From Candidatus Gottesmanbacteria bacterium (lineage in GTDB: Bacteria; Patescibacteriota; Microgenomatia; UBA10105; UBA927): a stretch of DNA of 58,866 nucleotides. The notes beneath the pieces were generated by a model, which worked only from the letters and a program-made list of their open reading frames with translations, was not told the DNA's origin and did not search any database. The DNA is taken from NCBI GenBank assembly GCA_016218215.1, contig JACREM010000069.1, positions 1-58,866 on the forward strand, written 5' to 3'. Positions 38,387 to 56,101 of this stretch are shown in pieces. The translations under genes and the position numbers were made by a program. Numbering within the stretch: the stretch's first letter is position 1; every line of letters begins with the position of its first letter.

Positions 38387-38605
38387 ATGAAGTCAAAGAC
38401 AGCAAAGAAGAGGATAACGAAACATGAGAATGATTTTTCATGGTTGCCTATTGATTCACGACTTCTTCCGCATCTGTTTTCTTTTGGTCATGTAAAGGGG
38501 ATAGCACGGGTGTTTATCGAGATAGAGATGATACTGTCCGTGTTTGTTGTTCTTGGAACATTTCTCGTTGTCCTCATGAAAATATCCGGTGTTTACAATA
38601 GGTAA
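38387..38605 (+). CDS. Candidate small protein (72 aa) with basic N-terminus and C-terminal TM helix
   Basis: ATG at 38387 with extended -10 TGgTACAAT (38369-38377) 9 nt upstream. MKSKTAKKRITKHEND..., C-terminal ILSVFVVLGTFLVVLM. The 3-prime end overlaps the pcrA stop by 13 nt. Confidence 0.3.
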   Translation: MKSKTAKKRITKHENDFSWLPIDSRLLPHLFSFGHVKGIARVFIEIEMILSVFVVLGTFLVVLMKISGVYNR

Positions 38606-40449
38606 TCATCTCTTTGAAATCCACGGCTTGCATCAAGTGATACTTGAAGATGGAGTGTCCACTGCGGAATGTCAGAGATAAATCGCGAGATGATGTTTTC
38701 CGTTCGTGTACCAAAAAATAACCGTTTATTTGCGTGGGTGAGATAAATTTGCTCTTTGGCTCGCGTGAGTGCGACATAGCAAAGGCGACGTTCTTCTTCG
38801 AGCTCATCTTTATCCATGACAGATCTACTATGAGGGAATAACCCTTCTTCCATGCCGATAAGAAATACTATGGGAAACTCAAGGCCTTTGGATGCATGGA
38901 CTGTCGTCATAACAACGGCTTTTTTTTTGTCTGTGTTCGATTTTGATCGTGGTTCAGATGCTTGTTCAACCAAGGAAATGGTTTCCAAAAATTCGCGAAG
39001 AACGGGAAATTCCAGAGCCACAGACCGAAGCTCCTTGATATTTTCAATTCTCGATGCTTCTTCCTCCACATGAGCATCATAAAGAGAAAGATATGATGTG
39101 ACAGACAGAATGTCATCAAGAATTTCAGTGGCCGTACGCGCGATAAGTGCATCTTCTGATTCTAGGGTCTTGCGATAGTCAAGAAATTTTGCCAGTTTTG
39201 TTTTTCCAATTTTTTCGGCTCTTCGAAATGAGACTTCATCTTTTTTGTTTTCTATGAGACGCAAGTAACAGAGAACATCTTTTATCTCTTTTCGTTCATA
39301 AAATCTCGTGCCTCCTACAAGAGCATACGGGACTCCGGCACGGATAAACGCTTCTTCTAGTACTCGAGACTGAGCGTTTGTTCTATAAAGAATAGCAAAA
39401 TCTTCATATGGGCGTCCTGACTGCAGTACTGTTTGGAGGATAAAAGACGCCTCATCATGTTCGTTTCTGGCTTCATACAGTGTAATTTTTTCGCCTCCGG
39501 CTTTATTGGTCCAAAGTTTTAGAATTGGATGACTTTTATTTTTTGCGATTACTCCATACGCTGCGTCGAGAATGATCTGTGTAGAACGATAATTTTGAGA
39601 AAGATGAAATTCTTTTGCCTCCGGATAATCGGATTTAAAATTGATGATATTTCGAAAGTCAGCTCCCCGCCAGCGGTAGATTGATTGAGAAGCGTCGCCG
39701 ACGACGGAAATATTCCGAAACCGTTTTGCTAGAAGTTTTGTCAGTTCATACTGTGCTTTGTTTGTATCCTGATATTCATCGACAAAAATATAGCGAAATC
39801 GATTCTGATAACTTCCTAAAACTTCGCTATTTTTTTGAAACAGAGAAACGGTATATGACAAGAGGTCATCAAAGTCCAGCGCGCCATTTTTTGCAAGCGT
39901 CGACTGGTATTTTGCGTAGACAGTAGACACAATTTCCTGAAAATACCCTCGCGCTATCCCTCCATAGTCAGATGGAGAAATGAGTTCATTTTTTGCTTCA
40001 GATATAGTATGAAGAACGCTGCCCGGATTGGTATTTTTCGTTGAAATATCAAGCTCTTTCATAATTTCTTTTACCGTGTCGAGCTGGTCGGAATCATCGT
40101 AGATGACAAAATTTTGCGGAATGCCTATGTGTTTTCCGTCTCTTCGAAGGATGAGCGCTGAGAGGGCATGGAACGTTCCGGCATAAGGGATTGCGTTTGT
40201 ATGGTGTGATTCTTGAGCGAGAAGCGAGGCAATGCGTTCTTTCATCTCCATCGCGGCTTTATTTGTAAATGTCACCATAAGTATTTCTAAGGGAAGAATG
40301 TGTTTTTCCGAAATAAGATATGCGCTTTTATGTGTGAGCACTTTTGTTTTTCCGCTTCCGGCGCCTGCAAGTATGAGAGCCGGTCCGTCTGCATGGAGTA
40401 CCGCTTCCTGCTGTTCGGTATTTAGGCCTTGAAGAAGAATGGATGCCAT
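38593..40449 (-). CDS. pcrA: ATP-dependent DNA helicase PcrA/UvrD (short form)
   Basis: LNTEQQEAV, AGAGSGKTKVLT, DEYQDTN, VGDASQSIYRWRGA, TVHASKGLEFP, YVALTRAK. Start moved to the ATG at 40449 (MASILLQGLN). Confidence 0.9.
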   Translation of the reverse strand: MASILLQGLNTEQQEAVLHADGPALILAGAGSGKTKVLTHKSAYLISEKHILPLEILMVTFTNKAAMEMKERIASLLAQESHHTNAIPYAGTFHALSALILRRDGKHIGIPQNFVIYDDSDQLDTVKEIMKELDISTKNTNPGSVLHTISEAKNELISPSDYGGIARGYFQEIVSTVYAKYQSTLAKNGALDFDDLLSYTVSLFQKNSEVLGSYQNRFRYIFVDEYQDTNKAQYELTKLLAKRFRNISVVGDASQSIYRWRGADFRNIINFKSDYPEAKEFHLSQNYRSTQIILDAAYGVIAKNKSHPILKLWTNKAGGEKITLYEARNEHDEASFILQTVLQSGRPYEDFAILYRTNAQSRVLEEAFIRAGVPYALVGGTRFYERKEIKDVLCYLRLIENKKDEVSFRRAEKIGKTKLAKFLDYRKTLESEDALIARTATEILDDILSVTSYLSLYDAHVEEEASRIENIKELRSVALEFPVLREFLETISLVEQASEPRSKSNTDKKKAVVMTTVHASKGLEFPIVFLIGMEEGLFPHSRSVMDKDELEEERRLCYVALTRAKEQIYLTHANKRLFFGTRTENIISRFISDIPQWTLHLQVSLDASRGFQRDDYLL

Positions 40450-40467
40450 AGGGTATAATAGTATCAC
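40450..40467. promoter_or_regulatory. 18-bp divergent pcrA/tpiA intergenic region holding a shared TATAATA box
   Basis: AGGGTATAATAGTATCAC. TATAAT (40454-40459) is 8 nt from the tpiA ATG. On the other strand, TATTAT (40455-40460) is 5 nt from the pcrA ATG. Confidence 0.5.
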
Positions 40468-41136
40468 ATGAAACGACCCCTTATCGTCGGAAATTGGAAG
40501 AGCAATAAGACGAGCACAGAGATGCTGTCTTGGATTGATGAAGCAGTGAAACAAAAAGAATTCATCAATATATTTCCGGGACAAATGATCATCTGTCCGC
40601 CATTTCCGTATCTTGATCTATTCTCAAGAGAGATATTGAAGCATAAACTCCGTATCGGTATCGGGGCACAGGATATTTCTCCGTTTGAACTTGGTGCTTT
40701 TACCGGTGAGGTCGCGGCTGAGCACGTAAAAGAATATGCATCATTTGTGATCATAGGTCATACTGAACGGAGAAAATATTTTTTGGAGTCAGATGAATTG
40801 CTTTCAAAGAAAGTTGCGCAGGCAAAACGTGTGGGTCTAAGCGTGATCTACTGTGTAAATGATGAAGATATGTTTATACCAGATGGTGTTGATGTTTTTT
40901 CGTACGAACAGACGTGGGCGATAGGATCCGGTAAGCCTGATACGCCGGAACACGCAGCTCTTGTGATCGAAAATTTGAAAAAATTGCATCCAACAGTACT
41001 GTCTCTTTATGGCGGGAGCGTGACAAAAGATAATGTCTCCTCGTATATGTCAGAAAATTGTATAGATGGAGTGCTATTGGGCGGTGCGAGCTTGAAATTT
41101 GATTCGTTTTTTTCACTTCTCCAAGCGCTCTCATAA
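40468..41136 (+). CDS. tpiA: Triosephosphate isomerase (compact, 222 aa)
   Basis: IVGNWKSNKT (catalytic Asn/Lys), IIGHTERR (His), YEQTWAIGSGK (Glu), YGGSV. Confidence 0.88.
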   Translation: MKRPLIVGNWKSNKTSTEMLSWIDEAVKQKEFINIFPGQMIICPPFPYLDLFSREILKHKLRIGIGAQDISPFELGAFTGEVAAEHVKEYASFVIIGHTERRKYFLESDELLSKKVAQAKRVGLSVIYCVNDEDMFIPDGVDVFSYEQTWAIGSGKPDTPEHAALVIENLKKLHPTVLSLYGGSVTKDNVSSYMSENCIDGVLLGGASLKFDSFFSLLQALS

Positions 41137-41151
41137 GAGTATAATCCCACT

Positions 41152-42174
41152 ATGAGAAAAAAATGGCTAGAGCGACCGTGGGGTTTTCTGACTACTTTTG
41201 CCTCACTTCTCCTTTTCGTCTGTGCCATTGTTGCTATACGCGATGTTTACGCGCTGCTCTCTCTAACTCATGTAACTATTCCTGATATGTATGCCATCGT
41301 TACATCTAAAGGAGATTCGTTGAAACAGGAAAATGGACGAACGAATATACTTCTATTGGGCTCCGGCGGCGGGACGCATGAAGGAAGCGATCTCACTGAT
41401 ACGATCATCATATTTTCTTATTCTTATGCATCAAAGTCAGCATCTCTAATCTCTGTGCCTCGCGATATCTGGTCTGAGACTTTGAAAGACAAGATAAATT
41501 CGGCATTTCATTATGGGGAAGAGAAAGCGAAAGGGGGAGGGTATGCTATGGCGCGAGCGATAGTAAGCGAAGTTACCGGCATACCGCTGCACTATTCCGT
41601 ATCTATGGAATTTTTTGGTTTTAAAACAGTGATAAATACTGTTGGGGGTATTGATGTTTTAGTATCTCAAGGGTTTACTGACTCAGAATATCCTATTGAA
41701 GGAAAAGAAAATGATGCGTGCAATGGCGATCCGCTGTATAGGTGTCGGTATATGACTGTTGTGTTTATAAAAGGAAGGGAACACATGAATGGCGATAGAG
41801 CGCTTGCATACGTAAGAAGTCGGCATGCAGATGGGGTAGAGGGCACTGACTTTGCACGGAGTAAACGCCAACAGGAAGTGCTCTCTGCGTTGAAGTCAAA
41901 GTTTTTTGATCCTCAGGTTTGGTATTCTCTCGAGTCTATAAAAAATGTCTATACATCTCTTGATACTGCGGTAAATACTGACATGGCCATGAAAGAAATC
42001 GGGATACTTGGGAAACTTTTTTGGTTGTCAGAACGGGAATCTATTGCAAAAATCAGTTTTGAAGATTTACTTATGAGTCCTTCGGAGGATCTCTATGAAG
42101 GAAGATATGTGCTATTGCCGCAAAGCGGAACGTTCGATGCAATCCATACGTATCTCAAGCAAAAACTCCAGTAA
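41152..42174 (+). CDS. LytR-CpsA-Psr (LCP) family cell-wall glycopolymer ligase
   Basis: TM anchor, then NILLLGSGGG...SDLTDTIIIFSY...SLISVPRDIW...GGIDV...ALAYVRSRH...DFARSKRQQEVL. Confidence 0.85.
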   Translation: MRKKWLERPWGFLTTFASLLLFVCAIVAIRDVYALLSLTHVTIPDMYAIVTSKGDSLKQENGRTNILLLGSGGGTHEGSDLTDTIIIFSYSYASKSASLISVPRDIWSETLKDKINSAFHYGEEKAKGGGYAMARAIVSEVTGIPLHYSVSMEFFGFKTVINTVGGIDVLVSQGFTDSEYPIEGKENDACNGDPLYRCRYMTVVFIKGREHMNGDRALAYVRSRHADGVEGTDFARSKRQQEVLSALKSKFFDPQVWYSLESIKNVYTSLDTAVNTDMAMKEIGILGKLFWLSERESIAKISFEDLLMSPSEDLYEGRYVLLPQSGTFDAIHTYLKQKLQ

Positions 42175-42178
42175 TTTT

Positions 42179-42964
42179 TTACCAGACAAGGCCGATGAGA
42201 AGAAGCAGGAGTCCGCTTCCGACAACTGACGCTCCAAGCACTGCGCCAGTACCCGAGACTGGGATTTTTGGTACCGGCGCTTCCGTCGGTGTGACACAGA
42301 GACAATTTGTACTCGTGGGACAACTCGGGTTTCGACAGACTCCATTGGAACATAACATGCCCGAAGTACAATCTGTTGAAGTCGAACATGTCGTGCCGCA
42401 GTATGGAGCAGGGGTCGGTGTTGGGCCGGTTCCTATAGGAATAGAAACCTTACAGACATCAGGAGTGGTGGAGTAGGTTCCATTGTTATCCCGGACCCTA
42501 CACGACGCGCCAAATGTGCCGCCTCTGGTAAATGTGTAGGTCGACGAAATCGATCCAGGGCTCCCTACATCTTTTTCGACAACCTTTGTATTGCCATCTC
42601 CAAAGCTAAATTCTGCCGCGAGGATTTTTCCGTCCGAGTCACGACCCGTACACGTAAATTCAACGGTCAGAGGAGAACTTGAGCCTGAATTTGGGTTTGC
42701 GGTGAGTTTTGTACATTCCGGGACGTTGTTTGATCCTCCTGGTGTAGGCGTTGGTGTTGGTGTAGCGGTCGGTGTAGGGGTAGGGCCAAGAGCAAACGTA
42801 AGCGTACATGCGGGCTCAGCGGCTTTTGGGGTAATCTGCGGTACCGTCGGAGCCACAGAATTTTTCTGTTCAAGTTTTTGTGTAGTAAGAAATATAACAG
42901 CCCCCATGCCCGCGACAAAAAGGAGAGTGAATAATATATTGAGTATTTTTTTTAGTTTTTGCAT
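42179..42964 (-). CDS. Surface protein: signal anchor, (PT)n linker, PKD-like domain, Cys-rich knot, C-terminal IPVSG + TM sorting-type signal
   Basis: PTPTPTATPTPTPTPG linker. PKD-like SPLTVEFTCTG...FSFGDGNT...TYTFTRGGTFGASCRVRDNNG. C-terminus KIPVSGTGAVLGASVVGSGLLLLLIGLVW. Confidence 0.6.
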   Translation of the reverse strand: MQKLKKILNILFTLLFVAGMGAVIFLTTQKLEQKNSVAPTVPQITPKAAEPACTLTFALGPTPTPTATPTPTPTPGGSNNVPECTKLTANPNSGSSSPLTVEFTCTGRDSDGKILAAEFSFGDGNTKVVEKDVGSPGSISSTYTFTRGGTFGASCRVRDNNGTYSTTPDVCKVSIPIGTGPTPTPAPYCGTTCSTSTDCTSGMLCSNGVCRNPSCPTSTNCLCVTPTEAPVPKIPVSGTGAVLGASVVGSGLLLLLIGLVW

Positions 42965-44580: not shown

Positions 44581-45885
44581 CTATTCCTTTAGTACCGAAA
44601 GACTTATCGAACCCGTCAAAAATAATCCGATTCCAAGAAAGATAAATAGGATGGTTGGAGAAGTAGATCCGCTTGTAGGCAGAGGCTTTGTTGTTGGGAT
44701 AGCTGTGGCTGTAGCAATTGGTGTTGGTTCTAGAGTTGCTGATGGCGTTGCATCTCCGAGTACCTGTGTCCCGCTTTTTAGAACCGTAAATGAGTGAGTC
44801 AGGGCAACAGGAGTGCCTTTGTCGTTTGTTGATGTAATAGTGACACTCTGTTTTCCTGGGGCAAGGGCTTCCCGAGATGAATACTTCCAGAGGCCATCAG
44901 CACCGACGGAAGTAGTATCGGAGAATGGTGAGGTAAGTCCCAGGGTAACTGCGACTGTTTTTCCTGGTACCCCTGTCCCTGCAATGAGCGGAAATTGGGT
45001 TGCCAGAGACGCACTTTCCTGTGGCGAGGTGAGAGAGACTGTAAATGGTCCGGCTGCAGGCAATACAGCTTGAGCTCCCAATACCGACGCGTTTGTATCT
45101 ACTGGTTTTGCATTTTGGGCAAGTTGTTGAGCAACCTTATTTGCCTGTTGGCGTCTAAAGTCGTACGATTTTCCAAGTGTCATGGTGGGCACTGGTGAGT
45201 CATTGAGCGTATCGGTTATAGCACTTGATTCCAGGTCAGATTCTCCGCGTATGAGGATATTTTCCGTTATTCGCTCTTCAAGCGGAATATATTGACTCAG
45301 ATCTTCCGTTCGTACAAAACTTAACGGCAAGAGCCACGTGCCGGAAGGTTTTGAAAGAGTGGAGAGTGTTTGTCCTGAGTCGAGAGTCAGATATACGATC
45401 GCTCCGTTTATGGGTTGGTTATTTTCATCGACAATTGTACCGTAAGAAGGTTCAAAATTTGGCGCTTGTGCCGTAAGCTCTGGTGCTGTTTTTATTTTCA
45501 GTGGTTTGTCGTTTTTTGGAAATGACGATCCGTTTGAAAGTATCGTCAGTGTGTATGTAAAGCTCGGCGAGAGACCATGAATAGGAACACTGTGGGATGT
45601 ATATTTTTTTAGTTTTCCGTCGCTGTCTCTTTCATCTTGTGCAAACTGTTTTGGCTGCTGTATTGTCACGGCGCCGGTGGTTGGGATGTTCGTCGTCCAG
45701 GTAATAGTGACACTGGTATCCGTAATGTTTGTCACTTGAATATTTGAAGGCTGTATGGATACTGATGCCTGAGTGTTTAGGCGAGTAGCGGTTTCAACAA
45801 GAGCAATACTTCCCCCAATGCCGAAAATGAGGAGCAATAATCCGAGTAGTGTTGGTATTTTATTTGGCAGGTGCATACTATGCAT
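44581..45885 (-). CDS. Surface protein: signal anchor, FN3-like, carboxypeptidase-regulatory-like and Ig-like domains, C-terminal LPTSG + TM sorting-type signal
   Basis: IQVTNITDTSVTITWTTNIPTTGAV (FN3-like), YGTIVDENNQPINGAIVYLTLDSGQ, GTGVPGKTVAVTLG...ADGLWKYSS. C-terminus KPLPTSGSTSPTILFIFLGIGLFLTGSISLSVLKE. Confidence 0.6.
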   Translation of the reverse strand: MHSMHLPNKIPTLLGLLLLIFGIGGSIALVETATRLNTQASVSIQPSNIQVTNITDTSVTITWTTNIPTTGAVTIQQPKQFAQDERDSDGKLKKYTSHSVPIHGLSPSFTYTLTILSNGSSFPKNDKPLKIKTAPELTAQAPNFEPSYGTIVDENNQPINGAIVYLTLDSGQTLSTLSKPSGTWLLPLSFVRTEDLSQYIPLEERITENILIRGESDLESSAITDTLNDSPVPTMTLGKSYDFRRQQANKVAQQLAQNAKPVDTNASVLGAQAVLPAAGPFTVSLTSPQESASLATQFPLIAGTGVPGKTVAVTLGLTSPFSDTTSVGADGLWKYSSREALAPGKQSVTITSTNDKGTPVALTHSFTVLKSGTQVLGDATPSATLEPTPIATATAIPTTKPLPTSGSTSPTILFIFLGIGLFLTGSISLSVLKE

Positions 45886-47684: not shown

Positions 47685-49334
47685 ATGAAGCAGATTTTTT
47701 CGTTTTTTTCGCGTAAGCAAGCGACTATCGGATCTGCTGCATTTGTCCTCATGTCGATGGTGCTTGCTTCCCGCGTGCTTGGACTTTTTCGCGACAGGCT
47801 TCTCGCATCGTATTTTTCCCCGGATGAACTCGGCGTGTACTTTGCCGCGTTTCGCGTTCCAAATATGATATTCGAACTTTTGGTTATGGGCGCCCTCACG
47901 AGTGCCTTTATCCCTGTATTTACGAAATATAAGTCCGAACACGGTGAGTCTGGTGCGTGGCATATGACCAGTTCTCTTATAAATGTAAGTCTCGTTGCAT
48001 TTGCATTGTTCGCCCTACCGTTTTTTTTGTGGACCCGCGAAATATCTCGGTTTTTGGCTCCCGGATTTTCCCCGGTCGAACTAGAACAAATGGTGGTATT
48101 TACTCGTTTTATGATGGTAGGACAGGTCATTCCACTACTGATCGGAAATTTTTTTACCGGCATACTTCAGTCGTATAATTTGTTCCTTATTCCGGCTATC
48201 GCTCCTGTTGTCTACAACATCGGTATTATTATCGGGACAATCATACTGTATCCGGCATTTGGACTCTTTGCTCCGGTTTACGGTGTGGGAATCGGAGCAC
48301 TTTTTTTTATGCTCATCCAGATTCCACTGCTTTTTAGCATTGGGTTTCGCTATAAAGCAGTGCTTGATGTCAAAAATCATGGGGTACGCGAGGTTGGCAG
48401 ACTTATGGCTCCGCGAACGCTCGGGCTTGCGATATCTCAGATTGATACAACAGTCGATTTGATGCTCGCGTCGATCCTCGGAGCAAAAATGGTGACCGTG
48501 TTTAACTTTGCACAACACCTGCAACAACTTCCGATCGGACTTTTTGGTGCGACCATTGCACAGGCCGCCCTGCCTTCACTTTCTCAATCTTCTGTAAATG
48601 AAAATAAAGAGCAGTTTCGACAAGCGATCATAAGTTCCTTGCATCAGGTATTTTTCTTCGTATTTCCATCGACTGTTTTTTTTATTGTCCTTCGGATTCC
48701 CATTGTCCGACTGGTATTTGGTGCGTCTAGGTTCGACTGGGAAGCAACGAGTCTTACCGGTCTGACGCTTGCTGCATTTAGTGTTTCGCTTTTTGCCCAA
48801 GCAGCGGTACACGTGCTCGCTCGAGGATTTTATGCGCTGTACGATACGAAGACGCCGGTCGTTATTGGGGTGATCTGTATAGTGGTAAATTCACTATTGA
48901 GTTTATATTTTATACAATTTTTGGGGTATCCGGTTTGGTCGCTTGGGGTCTCTACGTCTGTTGCAAGTATCATCAATGGTATACTTTTGTTTTGGTATCT
49001 GAATAAGAAACTTACTGGCATTTCAACGTTTGAGTTTTATACGCCAACGATAAAAATGTTTATAGTATCAGTTATTACTGGTGTTATGCTTTATATCCCG
49101 CTAAAACTTCTTGATCAACTCGTTTTTGATACAACTCGTGCATTTCCCTTGTTCTTTCTGACGGGCGTGGTCGGCGGCATTGGGACGCTTACATATATAT
49201 TTCTCTCCTGGGTTTTTGGTATAACCCAGGTGCAATCGGTATTTGCGTTTATTCAACGCATGAAGAAACCGCTTGTATTTTTAGAACCAGCAAGCGAAGC
49301 AGTTGACGCCGGGATTCAGGATACGATTTCGTAA
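47685..49334 (+). CDS. murJ: Lipid II flippase MurJ (MviN)
   Basis: VLASRVLGLFRDRLLASYFSPDELGVYFAAFRVPNMIFELLVMGALTSAFIPVF plus about 14 TM helices. TGgTATAAT lies 6 nt upstream of the ATG. Confidence 0.9.
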   Translation: MKQIFSFFSRKQATIGSAAFVLMSMVLASRVLGLFRDRLLASYFSPDELGVYFAAFRVPNMIFELLVMGALTSAFIPVFTKYKSEHGESGAWHMTSSLINVSLVAFALFALPFFLWTREISRFLAPGFSPVELEQMVVFTRFMMVGQVIPLLIGNFFTGILQSYNLFLIPAIAPVVYNIGIIIGTIILYPAFGLFAPVYGVGIGALFFMLIQIPLLFSIGFRYKAVLDVKNHGVREVGRLMAPRTLGLAISQIDTTVDLMLASILGAKMVTVFNFAQHLQQLPIGLFGATIAQAALPSLSQSSVNENKEQFRQAIISSLHQVFFFVFPSTVFFIVLRIPIVRLVFGASRFDWEATSLTGLTLAAFSVSLFAQAAVHVLARGFYALYDTKTPVVIGVICIVVNSLLSLYFIQFLGYPVWSLGVSTSVASIINGILLFWYLNKKLTGISTFEFYTPTIKMFIVSVITGVMLYIPLKLLDQLVFDTTRAFPLFFLTGVVGGIGTLTYIFLSWVFGITQVQSVFAFIQRMKKPLVFLEPASEAVDAGIQDTIS

Positions 49335-49345
49335 AACGAGATCGG

Positions 49346-49915
49346 TTACTTCTTGAGGAATGGAAAGAGTTTTGAGACGAATCTCCACATGGCTTCAATT
49401 GGAGATTCATTTTCTATCGTGAGTGCTAACGGTTTTGGTATAGAAGAAAGGAGGTCTAACCCTTTAAAATCGATGACGCCGGTTTTGGACGTGTCCCCCG
49501 CGGCGTAGTCGAATCGTATCATTGTTTTCCCTTTTTTAAGAGGTGAAAATGTTATTTTACCAAACACTCCTGTCGCCGGAATCGGTGAATTAAAACCGGT
49601 TGATCCCGAAAGTGTAATTTTCCCTTTATCGTTATTTACGCGTGCGTCTTTCGAAGGAGTATAGGTCGGATACAAAGATCCTTGTGCTACCGTGACTGCA
49701 CGAAGCATGGTGTGGTCATAGAGAATAATAGTGTCTGTGCCGAGTGTCTGTTCTCCGCCAGACAAAACTACTCCGATTGTATATGGTGCGTGTACGATTG
49801 CTTTTGGTTCCCCGAGGAGAGTCAGGCTTGCTGCTTCGACTGTCCTTGGATGTGCGAGCAGGAAGAGAAAGAAAATGTTTATGGAAATAAATAACAGTAA
49901 TTTTTTCATAGGCAA
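49346..49915 (-). CDS. Secreted single cohesin-like domain protein
   Basis: Signal peptide ending VEA-AS. Cohesin-like pattern: APYTIGVVLSGGEQTLGTDTIILYDHTMLRAVTVAQGSLYP...NNDKGKITLSGS...PIPATGVFGKITFSPLKKGKTMIRFDY. Confidence 0.55.
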   Translation of the reverse strand: MPMKKLLLFISINIFFLFLLAHPRTVEAASLTLLGEPKAIVHAPYTIGVVLSGGEQTLGTDTIILYDHTMLRAVTVAQGSLYPTYTPSKDARVNNDKGKITLSGSTGFNSPIPATGVFGKITFSPLKKGKTMIRFDYAAGDTSKTGVIDFKGLDLLSSIPKPLALTIENESPIEAMWRFVSKLFPFLKK

Positions 49916-49930
49916 AGCATGGTGGGCGTG

Positions 49931-50230
49931 TTATCTCGGCGCGTCAGCGCGTGTTGGTGTGTTTATATATGTTGGTGGGCCAATCATTCCTTCACCATAT
50001 CGTTCGAATATAGACACCGGAACAGATGATACCGGTTGAGTCTCTCCTCTTTTATTAAAATTGGAAAGCATGAGTGCGAGGTCACGCGTATTGACGACGC
50101 CATCTCGATTGAGGTCCCCTGATCCTGCTGGTTGCTTTCTTATGTCTGAAAAACCTTCAGTTCCTTTTTCGCTTGCTCCAGACCACTGGGTATATAATAC
50201 GCTGACATCGAAGGAATTAATTTTTTCATT
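49931..50230 (-). pseudogene. Dockerin-like module without a usable in-frame start (decayed C-terminal module of the hydrolase, or a frameshifted small gene)
   Basis: My own minus-strand translation: NEKINSFDVSVLYTQWSGASEKGTEGFSDIRKQPAGSGDLNRDGVVNTRDLALMLSNFNKRGETQ...APR*. GDLNRDGVVNTRDLALMLSNF is a classic dockerin calcium-binding repeat. The frame is identical to the GH39-like gene but is separated from it by TAA (50303-50305) and TAG (50231-50233). The ATG at 50229 is one nt out of frame. Confidence 0.45.
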
Positions 50231-50302
50231 CTATTTTAAGATTAAAGAGTCATGAAAAGTGTTGTCAAGGCGTAATCGTGAAATGTGTATGAAATCGTAC
50301 GG

Positions 50303-51706
50303 TTATTGCTTTGTGATTTCGAGAATCGCCATACTTGATGCCGGCATAAAAAGTTGTTTTGAAAAAGTATTTTCTGTGACTGTTTCAGTGAGAGTCACGT
50401 CTCTTCCGAAGAGGATTTTTTCGCGATATGAATATGTTCCAGGTTCGAGATTGGTGTACGAAATAGGCACAGTCTCTGTATGAGTGCCGGCTTCATCAAA
50501 ATTTACGAGAAAGAGCCGAATGGTATTGTCTTTTTGAGTTGCAAATCCCGTGACCCAAGAACCTTCTCCTGAGACGCCAATTCTATTTCCTACCATAGTG
50601 TCTATAAAATTGTACACAGAGTAACGGGGTTTTAGTTTTTTGCCGTTGTCGTCATGTGTAACAAGTCCCCATCCGTCTCCCGCTTGCTGGTTCGGGCCGT
50701 CTTTCGGCTGAAACGAAAAGGCATAGAGTGGTCCGCCTGAGATGAGTTGACGGATGACAGCTCCTGTATGTGCGGCGGCGTACGTCGTGCCATATCCTTT
50801 GCTCTTGCTTCCGGTAAATCCAAATTCAGTGATGAGTTTTGGTAAAAGGGTTGCCTGGGGATAGGGGAGAAGCCACGATATGACATTTTGCTGGTCTTCA
50901 CCAAATTTTTTCGGGTTCGGAAGATATGAGTGCCAGGAAAGAAAATCGAGTCTATTGCCGCTTGCGACAAGCCCTGTGACCCAGTTTTTGTATAGTCCGG
51001 TTGTGGCAGGTCCGCCAAGATAAAACGGATTGACTCCACTTGCTCTACCGGCTCCGACAGATGCAAAGTGATAGAGCGAGAGGTAGTTTTTTTCACCACC
51101 CATTTTCCATGAGCCGAACTGATCCAGGTCTGGTTCGTTCCATACCTCATAATAGATTCCCGAAAGGTTTTTCCCTCCTTTGCCGCTAAAATGTTCGATT
51201 GTTTTTTGTACCACCATGGCCCAGTCTTCCCAGTTGTTCGGTGGGTTTATGATGCTTCCGTCTTTCGCAATATTTTTTGGCATAAAGGAGAGTGCAAGGA
51301 GTGGTTTTGCTCCTGTTGCAAGAATAGTGTTGACAGCCACGTCGAGCTTTTCGAAATTAAAAGACAGGCTGCCGGATCCCCCTCCGACGACATCGTAGTG
51401 ATCAAAAAGATGATCCAGGCGAATGAGCTTTGGCTTGAGAGTTTTTAACTGCGGTACGATAGATGCGAGCATGTCGTTTGACTCTTCGCCGCCTTGTGAA
51501 AATGCGTGATAGAAATCTGTTTTGATCGGTTCAAGTACTGCCTTGGTGTCTACGACGATGGCTGCTGGTGTTCCGGTTGCGCGGGATATAAGCGTCACGG
51601 TTTGATATGTCACTAAAATAAAAAGAGGTAGGAAAAAAAGAAGCGCAATGATGCTTACGAGTTGTGTTGCCTTTGACGATGTATTGTTTTCAAAAATATT
51701 AGCCAT
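50303..51706 (-). CDS. Membrane-anchored clan GH-A glycoside hydrolase (GH39-like)
   Basis: N-terminal TM. YYEVWNEPD (acid/base Glu in the NEP motif) and LITEFGF (nucleophile Glu) at TIM-barrel-type spacing, then a C-terminal beta-sandwich-like region. Confidence 0.7.
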   Translation of the reverse strand: MANIFENNTSSKATQLVSIIALLFFLPLFILVTYQTVTLISRATGTPAAIVVDTKAVLEPIKTDFYHAFSQGGEESNDMLASIVPQLKTLKPKLIRLDHLFDHYDVVGGGSGSLSFNFEKLDVAVNTILATGAKPLLALSFMPKNIAKDGSIINPPNNWEDWAMVVQKTIEHFSGKGGKNLSGIYYEVWNEPDLDQFGSWKMGGEKNYLSLYHFASVGAGRASGVNPFYLGGPATTGLYKNWVTGLVASGNRLDFLSWHSYLPNPKKFGEDQQNVISWLLPYPQATLLPKLITEFGFTGSKSKGYGTTYAAAHTGAVIRQLISGGPLYAFSFQPKDGPNQQAGDGWGLVTHDDNGKKLKPRYSVYNFIDTMVGNRIGVSGEGSWVTGFATQKDNTIRLFLVNFDEAGTHTETVPISYTNLEPGTYSYREKILFGRDVTLTETVTENTFSKQLFMPASSMAILEITKQ

Positions 51707-52772
51707 AGGCGCGTCGAGTGGTGGGGTAGAGCAGACCAGCGAGGATAAGGATTGATCCTAAAATGATAATACCATATGTAGTAGAGGCATCTCCCGAGAT
51801 GGGCATGGCGCTTTGTGTGGAAACGGAGCCTCCGCCTGATGCTACGACGAATGAAGTAGTAGAAGTGAGCTGTTTTCCAGTTTTTGGATCTTGTGCAGAA
51901 ACGATGACATTGTGCGTTCCGGAATCAAGTGCTGTAGTCGGCGTGTAGACCCAGTTGCCGTTTGCATCAGCTGTGACAACAACAGTTTGCGGAGTAGAGT
52001 GTATGGTAATAGTGACTGTAGAACCTGGTGGTGCTTTCCCTTGAAGTGTCGGTTTTGAACTTGAAAGATTGGCGTCTTTTGCGGGAGTAAGAATATTAAG
52101 AGTAGCAGACGACGAGGCCTGGGCACTTCCCGACGCCTGCGGCGTAGGTGAAGGCGTAAGTATTGGTTGTTGAGTTTGAGAAATAGTATTCCCTGAGTTG
52201 GTTGCAGTGTTTGCAGTATTGGCAAGGGATGTTTTTGCCGCGGAACTATCGCCGGTTATAGTAATATTGGCTGGTGTTGATCCGGTGAGTACATTCGTTG
52301 ACCCTTCTCCCAGGCTACCGACAAACGTATTTTGTGCAAGTCGAATTTGAATTGGTCCCTCAGTTTTTTCGAGAGCCTTGAATTTTATGACGGCTGCGGT
52401 GCCAGTGCCGGTGATCGGCGTGCGGCTATTGAGAGCGCCGATGGTGATAGACGCAGATCCACGGTCGACAACCCCCGAAACCAGGATACTTGGGAATAAA
52501 GGGCCATTGGTAATAGTCTGTGCCTCTAGTTTTTGTGGATCAAATACCAGGTGAAGTTCTGCAGCTACTACTTGATTACTCCCTGTATCGATGAGGGTTT
52601 CGAGGGTAAACGTGTCTCCAACTTTTTTTGTGATGCTTGAAGGAGAGAGGGAGAGTGATGTTGCAGGTGCGGCTTTTTTTCGAAGCTCCTGGCTTTGGCC
52701 AGCTAGGAATACAGTCGCCGGAATTGCAACCAGAGCAAACACAATAGAGATAAGCAGGAGTACTTTTTTCAT
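51699..52772 (-). CDS. Surface scaffold-like protein: signal peptide, cohesin-like domain, Ser/Thr linker, Ig-like domain, C-terminal MPISG + TM + RR sorting-type signal
   Basis: Cohesin-like KKVGDTFTLETLIDTGSNQVVAAELHLVFDPQKLEAQTITNGPLFP...TPITGTGTAAVIKFKALEKTEGPIQI. Ig-like GKAPPGSTVTITIHS...ANGNWVYTP. C-terminus AMPISGDASTTYGIIILGSILILAGLLYPTTRRAYG. Start moved to the ATG at 52772 (MKKVLLLISIVF). Confidence 0.65.
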   Translation of the reverse strand: MKKVLLLISIVFALVAIPATVFLAGQSQELRKKAAPATSLSLSPSSITKKVGDTFTLETLIDTGSNQVVAAELHLVFDPQKLEAQTITNGPLFPSILVSGVVDRGSASITIGALNSRTPITGTGTAAVIKFKALEKTEGPIQIRLAQNTFVGSLGEGSTNVLTGSTPANITITGDSSAAKTSLANTANTATNSGNTISQTQQPILTPSPTPQASGSAQASSSATLNILTPAKDANLSSSKPTLQGKAPPGSTVTITIHSTPQTVVVTADANGNWVYTPTTALDSGTHNVIVSAQDPKTGKQLTSTTSFVVASGGGSVSTQSAMPISGDASTTYGIIILGSILILAGLLYPTTRRAYG

Positions 52773-52834
52773 CCTATATATATTATTAGATAGATATGAG
52801 AGAGAAGACAAGAGGGAGAAGTCAAAATTCGGAC

Positions 52835-52872: not shown

Positions 52873-52893
52873 TGTTTGGGAAAAGGTAAAATT

Positions 52894-53628
52894 ATGGATG
52901 AAACTATACATTTATCAGAGAGACAGATAAAGATATTGCAGGCTATTATTGAGGAATACATCACGACCGCAGAACCGGTAGGCAGCGAAACGCTTGAGAA
53001 AAAATACAACCTTGGTGTATCACCTGCGACGATACGAAACGAGATGGTGAGACTTTCTGACATGAAGCTCCTGTCTCAGCCTCATACGTCGTCCGGACGT
53101 TCGCCTACTCCTGTGGCGCTTAAGTATTATGTTGATCATCTTTTAAAGACCAAAGACATATCTGTTTCCGAAGAAGTGGCGCTCAAAGAAAAAATTTGGA
53201 ATTATCGACAGGAGGTGGATAAACTACTTCGGGAAGCGACAAAAATGCTTGCTTTAAAAACAAAAGCTCTTGCGATTACAGCAACAAAAGATGGTGATCT
53301 GTATTACGCAGGTGCGGCAAATATACTAAGCATGCCTGAGTTTTATGATTACGAACTCACGCATCATCTTTTTGAAACACTGGATGAGTCTGATTTTTGG
53401 TGGGCTCTTATGGAACGACAGATCGATCCATTTGACATTCTTCTGGGTGAGGAAGTAGAGAAGCGGGGAACATTGAACCAATGCGGTCTTATTTACTGTA
53501 AATTTACAACACCGCATATGACCGGCGCCATTGGCGTCGTTGGTCCGTCTCGATTAAACTATTCATCTGCAATCCCGCTTGTTCGGTACGTAGGAGGACT
53601 CATCGGTGAATTTGCAAGTGCATGGTAA
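52894..53628 (+). CDS. hrcA: Heat-inducible transcription repressor HrcA (short form)
   Basis: SERQIKILQAIIEEYITTAEPVGSETLEKKYNLGVSPATIRNEMVRLSDMKLLSQPHTSSGRSPT. A CIRCE operator lies immediately upstream. ATG at 52894 preferred over TTG at 52876. Confidence 0.85.
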   Translation: MDETIHLSERQIKILQAIIEEYITTAEPVGSETLEKKYNLGVSPATIRNEMVRLSDMKLLSQPHTSSGRSPTPVALKYYVDHLLKTKDISVSEEVALKEKIWNYRQEVDKLLREATKMLALKTKALAITATKDGDLYYAGAANILSMPEFYDYELTHHLFETLDESDFWWALMERQIDPFDILLGEEVEKRGTLNQCGLIYCKFTTPHMTGAIGVVGPSRLNYSSAIPLVRYVGGLIGEFASAW

Positions 53629-53677: not shown

Positions 53678-54145
53678 ATGAAACAACAGAAACAACCAAC
53701 AGATGATCAGGAAGTAAAAGTTGATGAGAGTGAAGAATGGAAAGGGAAGTACCTGAGAGCCTTGGCTGATTATCAGAATCTTGAAAAACGGACGTATCAG
53801 GAGGCCCAAATAACACGAAAATATGCAAATGAATTTTTGTTGACTCGTCTTCTTTCGGTTTCAGATACATTTGAACGGGCATTGGATCACTTAAAAGACC
53901 AGGGTCTTGGACTTGCAGTAAAAGAATTGCGTTCGGTATTTAGCGAGCACGGCGTGACAAAGATGGAAGTAATAGGCAAGCCGTTTGACCCGATGACCAT
54001 GGAATGCATTGATGTCGTCGATGGGCAAGAGGGGATAGTGATAGAAGAAGTAGCGCCTGGGTATTTGCTCTATGACAAAGTTATTCGGGTAGCTAAGGTG
54101 AACGTAGGAAAGAAAGTAAACCAACCTGCAGGTGATCAAATATAG
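53678..54145 (+). CDS. grpE: Nucleotide exchange factor GrpE
   Basis: KYLRALADYQNLEKRTYQE..., VSDTFERAL, KPFDPMTMECI, GYLLYDKVIRVAKVNV. Confidence 0.9.
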   Translation: MKQQKQPTDDQEVKVDESEEWKGKYLRALADYQNLEKRTYQEAQITRKYANEFLLTRLLSVSDTFERALDHLKDQGLGLAVKELRSVFSEHGVTKMEVIGKPFDPMTMECIDVVDGQEGIVIEEVAPGYLLYDKVIRVAKVNVGKKVNQPAGDQI

Positions 54146-54172: not shown

Positions 54173-56101
54173 ATGGCAAAAATAATTGGTATTGATCTTG
54201 GAACAACAAATTCATGTATCGGGGTGATGGAAGGCGGAGCACCGAAGGTGATTTATTCCTCTGAAGGAAGAAACGTGATTCCGTCTGTCGTGGATCCTGT
54301 GAAAAATATCGTAGGAGATGTGGCCAAGCGTCAGATGGTCATGAATCCAAAAACGACTCTATATTCAGTAAAGCGACTCATGGGACGAAAATTTAGCGAC
54401 CCATCGGTTAAAACCGACCTTAAGCTTTTGCCGTATCTTGTGAAATCCGGGAAAAATGACATGGCGCTTGTAGAGGTAGATGGGCGACAGTATACGCCTC
54501 AGGAAATATCTGCAAAGATACTGTCAAGAATAAAAGCAGACGCAGAACACTATCTGGGTGAGCCGGTAAAACAAGCCGTTATTACAGTTCCAGCATATTT
54601 TGATGACAGTCAGCGACAAGCGACAAAGCAAGCAGGAGAGATAGCAGGACTTGAAGTCATGCGTATATTAAATGAGCCTACTGCTGCAGCACTCGCATAT
54701 GGTTTAGACAAAAAAAATGCACACACCATCGCAGTCTACGATCTGGGTGGAGGTACGTTTGATATAAGCGTTCTTGAGCTTGGAGACGGTGTCTATGAGG
54801 TGAAGTCGACCAACGGTGATACCCACCTTGGAGGAGATGATTTTGACAAAAAAATTGTCGATTACATAGCTGAGGAATTTAAAAAAGAAAATGGAGTGGA
54901 TCTACGAAATGATCCTCAAGCACTGCAGCGACTTCGCGATGCGGCAGAAAAGGCAAAAATTGAGCTTTCGTCATCTATGGAAGCGGAGATTAATTTGCCG
55001 TTTGTCACTCAAGGCAAAGCAGGACCACTCCATCTCGTCATGAAGTTGTCACGATCAAAGCTTGAGTCGATTGTCGGAGATCTGATTGCCCGTTCCATTG
55101 AACCCGTAAAAAAGTGTCTGACTGATGCAAAGCTCAAGACCAGTGACATAGACGAGGTGGTGCTCGTCGGAGGTATGACGAGGATGCCCAAGGTCATCGA
55201 AACGGTGAAAGAATTTTTTGGAAAAGATCCGAATCGATCGGTAAATCCTGATGAGGTAGTCGCGCTTGGAGCGGCCGTACAAGCAGGGGTCCTTGCAGGT
55301 GATGTCAAAGATGTCGTTCTTCTTGACGTGACACCATTGACACTTGGAGTAGAAACACTCGGCGGGGTATCGACGCCGCTTATTACGCGAAATACCACGG
55401 TACCGACGAGTAAGATGGAGATATTTTCAACTGCCGCAGATAGCCAGACGTCTGTTGAGATTAATGTGCTTCAGGGTGAACGTCCGATGGCTGGGGACAA
55501 CAAGTCTCTGGGACGATTTGTCCTATCCGGTATCCCTGCTGCACCTCGCGGTGTGCCGCAGATAGAGGTGACGTTTGATATCGATGCATCAGGAATATTA
55601 AACGTAACAGCCAAAGATAAAGCGAGCGGAAAGGTATCGAATATAAAAATAACAGGCTCGACTGGGCTTTCAAAAGACGAGATAGAAAAGATGAAAGCAG
55701 AAGCTGAGGCGCATGCGGCTGAGGATAGCGCGAAAAAAGATCGCATAGAGGCAAAAAACAAAGCAGATAATATGCTCTATGTAGCCGAAAAAACGCTCAA
55801 AGATGCAGGCGAGAAAGCAAAACCGGAAGATAAAACTGCTGTAGAGGAGAAGTCTAAATCTTTGAAAGACATACTTGAGAGCGGGTCTAAGGAAGATCTT
55901 GAAGCTAAAACGAACGAGCTATCGGAGGCAGTGCAAAAAGTCGGCGCAGCGGCGTATGCCGAATCTGGCGGTACTCCGCCTGGGGGAACAGCTCCAGATG
56001 GTGGAGCGCAGGAGCCAGGATCAGATACTGCCGGGTCAGAGCCAAAAGTGGAAGACAAAAAAGAAGAAGGAAAAGTGGAAGAGGGACAGGTAGTGGGTTA
56101 A
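54173..56101 (+). CDS. dnaK: Molecular chaperone DnaK (Hsp70)
   Basis: [45 protein letters not shown] upstream. Confidence 0.97.

Follow-up and report, generated by a model that had tools for sequence, protein, structure and literature searches.

The 58,866-nt contig JACREM010000069.1 of a Candidatus Gottesmanbacteria bacterium (hereafter the window, in whose positions all coordinates are given) carries, on the minus strand between hrcA and murJ, three intact open reading frames (ORFs) and a 387-nt gap (49916-50302). The three ORFs encode a cohesin-immunoglobulin (Ig) protein (g1), a family 39 glycoside hydrolase (GH39; g2) and a small cohesin protein (g4). In four related contigs the same position as the gap is filled by an intact gene for a dockerin protein of ~600-720 aa, which we name DOCP; labels of the form L001-L107 denote the other contigs or loci compared. 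Working from domain identities, a deletion, a synteny and module boundaries that we observed directly, we conclude that this is probably a two-module, non-cellulosomal cohesin-dockerin surface locus, in which DOCP has been inactivated by deletion in the window. An earlier, sequence-only reading of this DNA described four co-directional units; what the window contains is three intact genes and one pseudogene fragment. The features of the locus are as follows.

51699..52772, minus strand: g1, predicted membrane-anchored cohesin-Ig surface protein, 357 aa from ATG
about 52254-52661, minus strand: g1 cohesin, aa 38-173 (Pfam, AlphaFold2 (AF2) and Foldseek)
about 51843-52097, minus strand: g1 Big_13 Ig domain, aa 226-310 (Pfam and AF2)
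about 51702-51812, minus strand: g1 C-terminus, SAMPISGD followed by a transmembrane segment and RR
50303..51706, minus strand: g2, N-terminally transmembrane-anchored, GH39-like clan GH-A retaining glycosidase, 467 aa
50222..50302, minus strand: 5' remainder of the DOCP gene, a conserved promoter-like element (TTGACA-N16-TTTAAT) and ATG-AAA-AAA, with the ATG at 50229 (aligned at the DNA level to the starts of this gene in L094, L088 and L001)
50140..50229, minus strand: 29-codon out-of-frame junk ORF (MKKLIPSMSAYYIPSGLEQAKKELKVFQT*), made by the deletion (ORF list)
49931..50221, minus strand: 3' DOCP remnant, the last ~95-96 codons and the stop (alignment to intact orthologues)
49346..49915, minus strand: g4, small, predicted secreted single-cohesin protein, 189 aa from TTG or 187 aa from ATG

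The deletion is seen most directly by comparison with L001, whose GH39 is 88% identical to that of the window. BLASTN aligns the two in two collinear blocks, with a break at window 50219/50221 that corresponds to L001 6488/8422, and 1,933 bp (L001:6489-8421) are skipped between the blocks. The junction lies at ~50219-50221, and the deletion is internal, out of frame and ~1.5-1.9 kb in size. Across it ATGAAAAAA is retained one base out of frame, the original start (MKK..., as in L094 and L088) being joined to ...TTAATTCCTTCGATGTC of dockerin repeat 1. Because the fusion is one base out of frame, the ATG opens the 29-codon junk ORF and the dockerin tail is untranslatable from it. The promoter-like element ahead of this ATG was read straight from the DNA alignment, and it is unlisted in a consensus scan because position 2 of its -10 hexamer is T. 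An identical junction is found in a separate Logan assembly (L092, run SRR12113407), which differs from the window at a single position in 9135 bp (99.99% identity, no gaps), arguing against a one-off mis-assembly.

Of the dockerin, the sequence downstream of the junction preserves repeat 2 in full (GDLNRDGVVNTRDLALMLSNF) but only the helix of repeat 1, and the C-terminal tail follows. When it is aligned with three intact orthologues (L001_719, L094_597 and L088_603), the match starts inside that helix, the Ca-loop of repeat 1 being missing, and runs on at 73-78% identity without an internal stop. No ATG, GTG or TTG is present in this frame upstream of the Ca-loop, the first start codon being the Met within ...LALMLSNF. 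Against Pfam Dockerin_1 (PF00404) the frame scores 22.2 bits with half of the model covered, under the cutoff of 22.9, and an NCBIfam scan of the four products gave a GC-type dockerin (12.5 bits) as its sole match. A motif scan of the 58.9-kb window for a second dockerin loop found none, the loop of the remnant being the sole match. The dockerin repeat claimed from the sequence alone thus survives in part: the peptide is there, in the frame given for it, with a stop 15 nt ahead of g4, but it is the only complete repeat and its profile score falls short, whereas both cohesins and the GH39 exceed their Pfam cutoffs. We read this "dockerin module" as an apparent pseudogene remnant rather than a gene and, given that the out-of-frame deletion inactivates DOCP, the cassette of the window would have no functional dockerin. 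Searching the 96-residue remnant against 1.84 billion representatives returned 359 proteins at E<=0.001; matches of the full-length type share the DOCP architecture, and the others are generic multi-repeat dockerin proteins.

In L001 the intact DOCP gene encodes 719 aa and lies between the GH39 and the small cohesin gene, and its product ends in a two-repeat dockerin (...GDINGDTYGKKDQIINSFDVSVLYTQW...GDLNRDGVVNTRDLALLLANF...). From its N-terminus, DOCP consists of a transmembrane leader, ...FELRKKA..., a cohesin-like domain into which a Cys/Pro-rich segment is inserted, Pro/Thr linkers, a beta-sandwich that contains SHLRK, and the C-terminal two-repeat dockerin. By hhalign, DOCP 43-308 aligns to the whole small-cohesin domain with a probability of 96.5%, the insert appearing as a gap, and the leader and first strands align to g1 with a probability of 96.4%. 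In intact orthologues Dockerin_1 is matched at 25.2 bits (L094, profile 6-53 of 57, both repeats) and 32.3 bits (P0363). No catalytic Pfam domain was found in the 12 DOCP family members scanned.

To place the locus in context we used 80 species-level loci around GH39 homologues (GTDB genomes), annotated by phmmer with the window proteins. The locus is made of two separately conserved modules, A (g1 and g2) and B (DOCP and g4), and the four-gene cassette is a juxtaposition of these two modules, which have different phylogenetic spreads; the four-gene order arises because module B sits between GH39 and murJ. The neighbours of the locus in the window are:

52876..53628, plus strand: hrcA, conserved divergent upstream neighbour of module A (gene tables of relatives)
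53678-54145, plus strand: grpE, after hrcA
54173-56101, plus strand: dnaK, after grpE
47685..49334, plus strand: murJ, lipid II flippase family, conserved convergent downstream neighbour (Pfam MurJ in relatives)

HrcA is encoded at most 3 kb upstream of GH39 in 54 of 72 loci, and MurJ at most 4.5 kb downstream in 47 of 67. A cohesin-Ig gene stands immediately upstream of GH39 in 37 of 77 species-level loci, and these are essentially Gottesmanbacteria-like, with a GH39 identity of at least ~53%; in distant lineages the cohesin-Ig position is often empty and the GH39 position is kept. GH39 is sometimes followed by a DUF2079 membrane protein (L002, L004), and its relatives occur in at least 469 genome stretches, from Gottesman-, Woese-, Shapiro-, Collier-, Chisholm- and Pacebacteria. 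The full order cohesin-Ig, GH39, DOCP, small cohesin, which the sequence-only reading had proposed to look for in relatives, is intact in L001, L087/L095, L094 (GCA_038064255.1) and L086, and is conserved within a narrow clade. The adjacency of DOCP and g4 is found in 9 distinct arrangements, different genomic contexts included: three contexts of the pair are free of GH39 (L096, L097, L101), and in one arrangement (L099/L100) the order of the pair is reversed. Distant pairs (35-39% identity) came from a metagenome scan with the DOCP alignment.

At L086:2600-3720 (GCA_964363025.1) the gene table lists two short minus-strand ORFs, and an intact 371-aa cohesin-Ig ORF lies on the plus strand; this is probably a difference in gene calling and not a gene loss.

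Dockerin-bearing proteins of other kinds were also seen. In another Gottesmanbacteria metagenome-assembled genome, two of them lie just upstream of the cohesin-Ig/GH39 pair (L050:109-3338, plus strand). Near GH39 in other Microgenomates there are transmembrane-anchored fn3 proteins of 180-252 aa that end in one or two dockerin-like Ca-loops (L053:838-1380; L079:515-1114, minus strand; L052:1287-1886, minus strand; L055:64-822, minus strand), and these may be minimal dockerin ligands. An unrelated metagenome contig (L107:407-3189, plus strand) encodes a 720-aa dockerin protein followed by a 198-aa ORF that is cohesin-like by eye and has a PEP-CTERM-like tail (VPLPASAWLLLSGFIGLASIVRRKPA), so that a gene pair of a dockerin protein and a small anchored cohesin may be a wider theme.

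The cohesin-Ig protein g1 passes Pfam Cohesin (PF00963) at 38.1 bits (cutoff 24.1) and Big_13 at 41.9 bits (cutoff 27). In its AF2 model, built with 78 homologues (mean pLDDT 83), terminal helices (2-33 and 329-356) flank a beta-sandwich (38-173, pLDDT mostly >90) and the Ig domain (226-310), which are joined by a disordered Ser/Thr linker (184-222). Foldseek matches of g1 in the PDB are almost exclusively cohesins, and its sandwich resembles type I cohesins with a TM-score of about 0.8 and a root-mean-square deviation of 2.3-2.6 A, the wider ranges being 0.74-0.81 (TMt) and 2.2-3.0 A; the top match is 2w1n, the cohesin-FN3 pair of Clostridium perfringens GH84C, and match no. 16 is 2xdh, a non-cellulosomal cohesin of Archaeoglobus fulgidus. 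Nearly all of the 354 homologues of g1 combine Cohesin and Big_13, and some carry the NCBI name "cohesin domain-containing protein [Patescibacteria]". In the tail, P324 and G327 do not vary among 78 homologues, and MPISG, a hydrophobic segment and a basic end form a tripartite layout like that of a sorting signal. NCBIfam gave no sorting-signal match in g1, and neither an SLH domain nor a plausible ORF for a sortase (TLxTC) is present in the 58.9-kb window.

Two further observations concern the ends of such proteins. A 434-aa fn3 / CarboxypepD_reg / Big_13-like surface protein (44581-45885, minus strand), encoded directly after pilN/pilO, ends in KPLPTSG and a transmembrane helix, the same xPxSG and transmembrane layout as in the g1 tail; a homologue of ~430 aa follows pilO in most Gottesmanbacteria loci, and this tail may be a lineage-specific sorting signal. 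At the other end, cohesin-type proteins of these genomes have in common an N-terminal leader of a transmembrane helix followed by Q..ELR(K/R)KA, as in g1 (52674-52772, minus strand; QELRKKA), L094:8538-8650, L050:2007-2130 and L052:3227-4657 (minus strand). The motif is ~9-fold enriched at N-termini across 85 loci and is almost confined to cohesin/dockerin proteins, and the leader may be a signal reserved for their export or processing.

The start of g2 overlaps the stop of g1 by 8 nt. The protein passes Pfam GH39 (PF01229) at 70.6 bits (cutoff 26), the matched span being only 57-228 of the 472 profile positions, and it matches GH39 beta-xylosidases among PDB sequences with an E of 3e-15. Its AF2 model (pLDDT 79, pTM 0.77) shows a transmembrane helix near the N-terminus (11-44), then a (beta/alpha)8 barrel with a beta-sandwich on its C-terminal side. 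The top Foldseek matches are all GH39 (E 1e-23 to 1e-20), the best neighbours being beta-xylosidases and an alpha-L-iduronidase (E down from 1e-19 to 1e-23, TM-score 0.6-0.7), at 15-19% identity to the solved members. Among 18 homologues there is no variation at E191 (in WNEPD) or E294 (in ITEFG), and the NEP motif aligns with that of XynB; the segment around E294 is modelled poorly (pLDDT <50). We found 1783 homologues, the best 120 at 63-88% identity. Pfam and NCBIfam scans give GH39 only, with no dockerin on the enzyme of the window, and a dockerin regular expression flagged no GH39 ORF in the 80 related loci. Given that g2 has its own transmembrane anchor and no detected dockerin motif, we conclude that it is not dockerin-borne cargo.

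Its substrate is not transferable from characterised members, because identity to them is only 15-19%. An envelope or partner-surface glycan may be at least as plausible as plant xylan, because the gene is conserved at 40-90% identity in genomes of ~1 Mb and is fixed beside murJ, with an occasional DUF2079. A PslG-like exopolysaccharide hydrolase as the nearest GH39 relative is not supported, there being no PslG among the sequence matches or the top 50 fold matches.

The small protein g4 passes Pfam Cohesin at 34.0 bits (cutoff 24.1) and shares 30% identity with the cohesin of g1 (E 5e-7); its signal peptide ends in VEA|AS. A single-sequence phmmer search of the PDB gave no match at E<=1 for g4, while a profile of its family gave 13 matches, all cohesins, with a best E of 1e-4. 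The family has only 8 clusters among 5.8 billion proteins, and its members with enough context all adjoin a DOCP homologue, lying directly downstream of it except in one arrangement. Decay of g4 after the loss of DOCP was considered and rejected: identity is 65-67% in all three pairwise comparisons of the window, L001 and L094, so g4 is evolving no faster in the lineage of the window. The C-terminus of g4 (49346-49405, minus strand) is a conserved amphipathic basic tail, ...FVSKLFPFLKK (in the family ...MWRFVSKLFPFLKK, in distant members ...LLSFFQSLWKK), and this tail could hold the "free" cohesin at the membrane or wall.

What the sequence-only reading had said of these three proteins holds good, namely the cohesin, Ser/Thr linker, Ig domain and MPISG, transmembrane and RR tail of g1, the membrane-anchored, GH39-like clan GH-A hydrolase with its two catalytic motifs and its overlap with g1, and the cohesin nature of g4. 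So does its guess of a candidate phyla radiation (CPR) genome, the best homologues carrying Microgenomates/CPR names.

In the two-module locus that we consider probable, g1 would be translationally coupled to g2, with both products anchored in the membrane. In relatives, the dockerin of DOCP would plug into a cohesin, most likely that of g4, which is favoured since its gene is always found next to that of DOCP and is inherited with it. Alternative partners would be the g1 cohesin or the cohesin-like domain of DOCP itself, and in the latter case head-to-tail polymers would be possible. The product would be a non-catalytic protein assembly at the cell surface, for example an adhesin or a scaffold, with the GH39 acting independently as an envelope-tethered glycosidase on a surface glycan of its own or of a partner cell. 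The strain of the window would have lost the dockerin-bearing component and kept both cohesins and the enzyme; g1, g2 and g4 are apparently under normal constraint there, and may therefore act with dockerin proteins whose genes lie in other parts of the genome.

Several points tell against this interpretation. Dockerin proteins outside the 58.9-kb window could still serve g1 and g4. The assembly L092 is possibly from the same or a sister sample, and so is not fully independent evidence for the deletion. The loop in repeat 1 of the DOCP dockerin is unusually long (GDINGDTYGKKDQIINSFD), and binding may be non-canonical; the partner cohesin of this dockerin, moreover, is assigned from gene adjacency alone. 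Finally, the best solved relatives of the GH39 are beta-xylosidases, which fits nutrient scavenging as well as it fits envelope remodelling.

A bolder proposal, tentative and in our view unlikely, is that cohesin-dockerin pairing in Gottesmanbacteria and other Microgenomates, instead of organising enzymes, builds a non-enzymatic surface fibre or lattice for attachment to partner cells. Chains with both module types, such as DOCP or the protein at L050:2007-3338, in which Cohesin (39.8 bits), fn3 and Dockerin (28.1 bits) occur in one chain, would polymerise head-to-tail or dock onto the cohesins of g1 and g4, the tethered GH39 would trim surface glycan, and the deletion in the window would be strain-level on/off variation of an attachment structure.

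That there is no cohesin-dockerin system at all, the "cohesins" being generic beta-sandwich modules for glycans or a host surface in an envelope-biogenesis neighbourhood, we consider unlikely. Non-cellulosomal cohesins with unknown partners are widespread, as PMC3035643 is cited in PMC10066038; g1 is conserved in many genomes with no dockerin gene near the locus; and the neighbours murJ, DUF2079 (in L002/L004) and an LCP homologue at 41152-42174 are envelope-related. However, the small cohesin is strictly beside a dockerin-bearing protein in 9 independent arrangements, and cohesin and dockerin recur in the single chain of L050. Adjacency and single-chain pairing are hard to explain unless cohesin and dockerin work together.

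It had been suggested that anchor, enzyme, dockerin and free cohesin form a self-contained display unit. In such a minimal cellulosome-like arrangement, g1 would act as a scaffold holding the GH39, a dockerin partner or both for polysaccharide degradation. True cohesins and a dockerin-type repeat do stand beside a glycoside hydrolase, g1 and g2 are coupled by their overlap and co-conserved in 37 of 77 loci, and the top fold match of g1 comes from the GH84 enzyme of C. perfringens. Against this, the GH39 is self-anchored and has no dockerin here or in the 80 related loci; the sole dockerin protein is non-catalytic and, in the window, deleted down to a pseudogene; there is one cohesin per protein, and Pfam detected no carbohydrate-binding module (CBM) at E<=1 in the products of the window; and in distant Microgenomates the GH39 keeps its position without an upstream cohesin gene. 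Because no enzyme carries a dockerin, cellulosome-type enzyme display is unsupported, and because, in addition, the gene of the dockerin partner is destroyed, the locus is very probably not a mini-cellulosome. We therefore consider a display unit to be highly unlikely.

We are equally doubtful of a reading in which the deletion is an error of assembly or confined to a minority variant, and the real genome has an intact DOCP and a functional four-gene cassette. Metagenome assemblies can collapse regions, all four nearest relatives carry an intact DOCP, and the remnant, with no internal stop, is still 73-78% identical to its orthologues, so that any deletion must be recent. But the same junction recurs in the Logan assembly, and it is a clean join between two unrelated sequences, the start codon and the middle of the dockerin, with no sign of a repeat that could have made the assembly collapse.

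Next to negligible is the idea that the remnant is still expressed, through a -1 slip on ATG-AAA-AAA-T or from an unusual start, as a ~97-aa half-dockerin able to bind g4 or g1. In its favour, the native promoter and the ATG with its run of six A are kept, the promoter being known from its sequence likeness, and the dockerin frame is exactly -1 to the ATG and open over 96 codons. But the product would have no transmembrane or signal leader and could not reach extracellular cohesins, its first Ca-loop is missing, G-AAA-AAA-T is not a canonical slippery heptamer (X-XXY-YYZ), and no relative showed such an arrangement, each having either a complete gene or no gene at all. Because the product would have no export signal and only half a dockerin, rescue of the remnant by frameshifting was set aside as very unlikely.

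The two-module locus can be set beside several known systems. The g1 cohesin shares with the scaffoldins of Clostridia and Ruminococcus (sortase-anchored ScaE; ScaA/ScaB) a type-I-like fold, having a TM-score of ~0.8 to CaCohA2, the C. cellulolyticum CipC cohesin and A. cellulolyticus ScaB Coh6; further likenesses are the putative C-terminal surface anchor of a cohesin protein (g1) and, in relatives, the combination of cohesin and dockerin in one protein (DOCP). Unlike the scaffoldins, the locus has one cohesin per protein, no CBM and no dockerin-bearing enzyme, its host is a CPR organism of ~1 Mb, and its dockerin protein is non-catalytic and deleted in the window. Three defining features of cellulosomes are lacking, a dockerin on an enzyme, a multi-cohesin scaffoldin and a CBM, and the locus is therefore best filed under non-cellulosomal cohesin-dockerin systems. 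The presence of cohesin and dockerin motifs does not make a cellulosome.

In C. perfringens, cohesins and dockerins are found on the enzymes themselves. Like C. perfringens GH84C (2w1n) and the Archaeoglobus cohesin (2xdh), g1 is a surface protein from an organism that is not cellulolytic and pairs its cohesin with a downstream Ig/FN3-type domain, and a glycoside hydrolase is genomically or physically associated; unlike the C. perfringens case, the GH39 here carries neither cohesin nor dockerin, and the dockerin partner is a separate structural protein. With GH39 XynB (1px8, 2bs9) and human alpha-L-iduronidase, g2 shares the barrel and beta-sandwich and the Glu residues of the NEP and TE(F) motifs. 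Pseudomonas PslG is a GH39 with an N-terminal membrane tether, and g2 is likewise tethered at its N-terminus. Differences are the low identity of g2 to the solved GH39s and its place as a syntenic core gene beside hrcA/murJ across Microgenomates.

Cohesin and dockerin modules occur outside cellulosomes in all three domains of life, according to Peer et al. (2009, PMC3035643) as cited in PMC10066038. In the cultivated saccharibacterium Southlakia epibionticum, an episymbiont, the dockerin-domain envelope protein SEML1_0315 is essential; Wang et al. (2023, PMC10633639) speculate that it is directed at glycans of the host or has a part in adhesion. DOCP, from a different CPR lineage, resembles it in being a putative dockerin-domain envelope protein of Patescibacteria; the word "cohesin" occurs 0 times in the text of PMC10633639, which mentions no partner cohesin. 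Giant proteins of Omnitrophota carry dockerin repeats and have been proposed as adhesins. GH39 in CPR genomes has been counted as hemicellulose-related or called intracellular (PMC5581439, PMC9868632, PMC7143001), whereas the membrane tether and murJ synteny described here may point to envelope or partner glycans at least as much as to plant polymers. In the literature on cohesin and dockerin in CPR, Patescibacteria and Gottesmanbacteria we found no description of the cohesin-Ig/GH39 or the DOCP/small-cohesin pair; apart from the saccharibacterial protein and the Omnitrophota repeats, it yielded only generic counts. Little is known of how CPR/Patescibacteria build their surfaces and attach to their partners, and cultivating them is difficult; the locus offers a small, defined set of candidate pairs, one dockerin and three cohesin-type domains, that is testable in vitro without culture.

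A few other features of the window deserve mention. The homologue of LCP (LytR-CpsA-Psr) wall-polymer ligases noted above (41152-42174, plus strand, 109 bits) and a PKD-domain protein (42179-42964, minus strand) are encoded a few kb from the locus, and add to the envelope-related character of the neighbourhood. Two UvrD-family helicases are present (33554-36460, plus strand; 38593-40584, minus strand), the former with a C-terminal PD-(D/E)XK nuclease domain, as in AddA. Extreme strand disparity has been reported for a complete Microgenomates genome (PMC7143001). In the window, GC skew is positive in all 2-kb bins (1-58866), whatever the gene strand, which is compatible with a single replichore.

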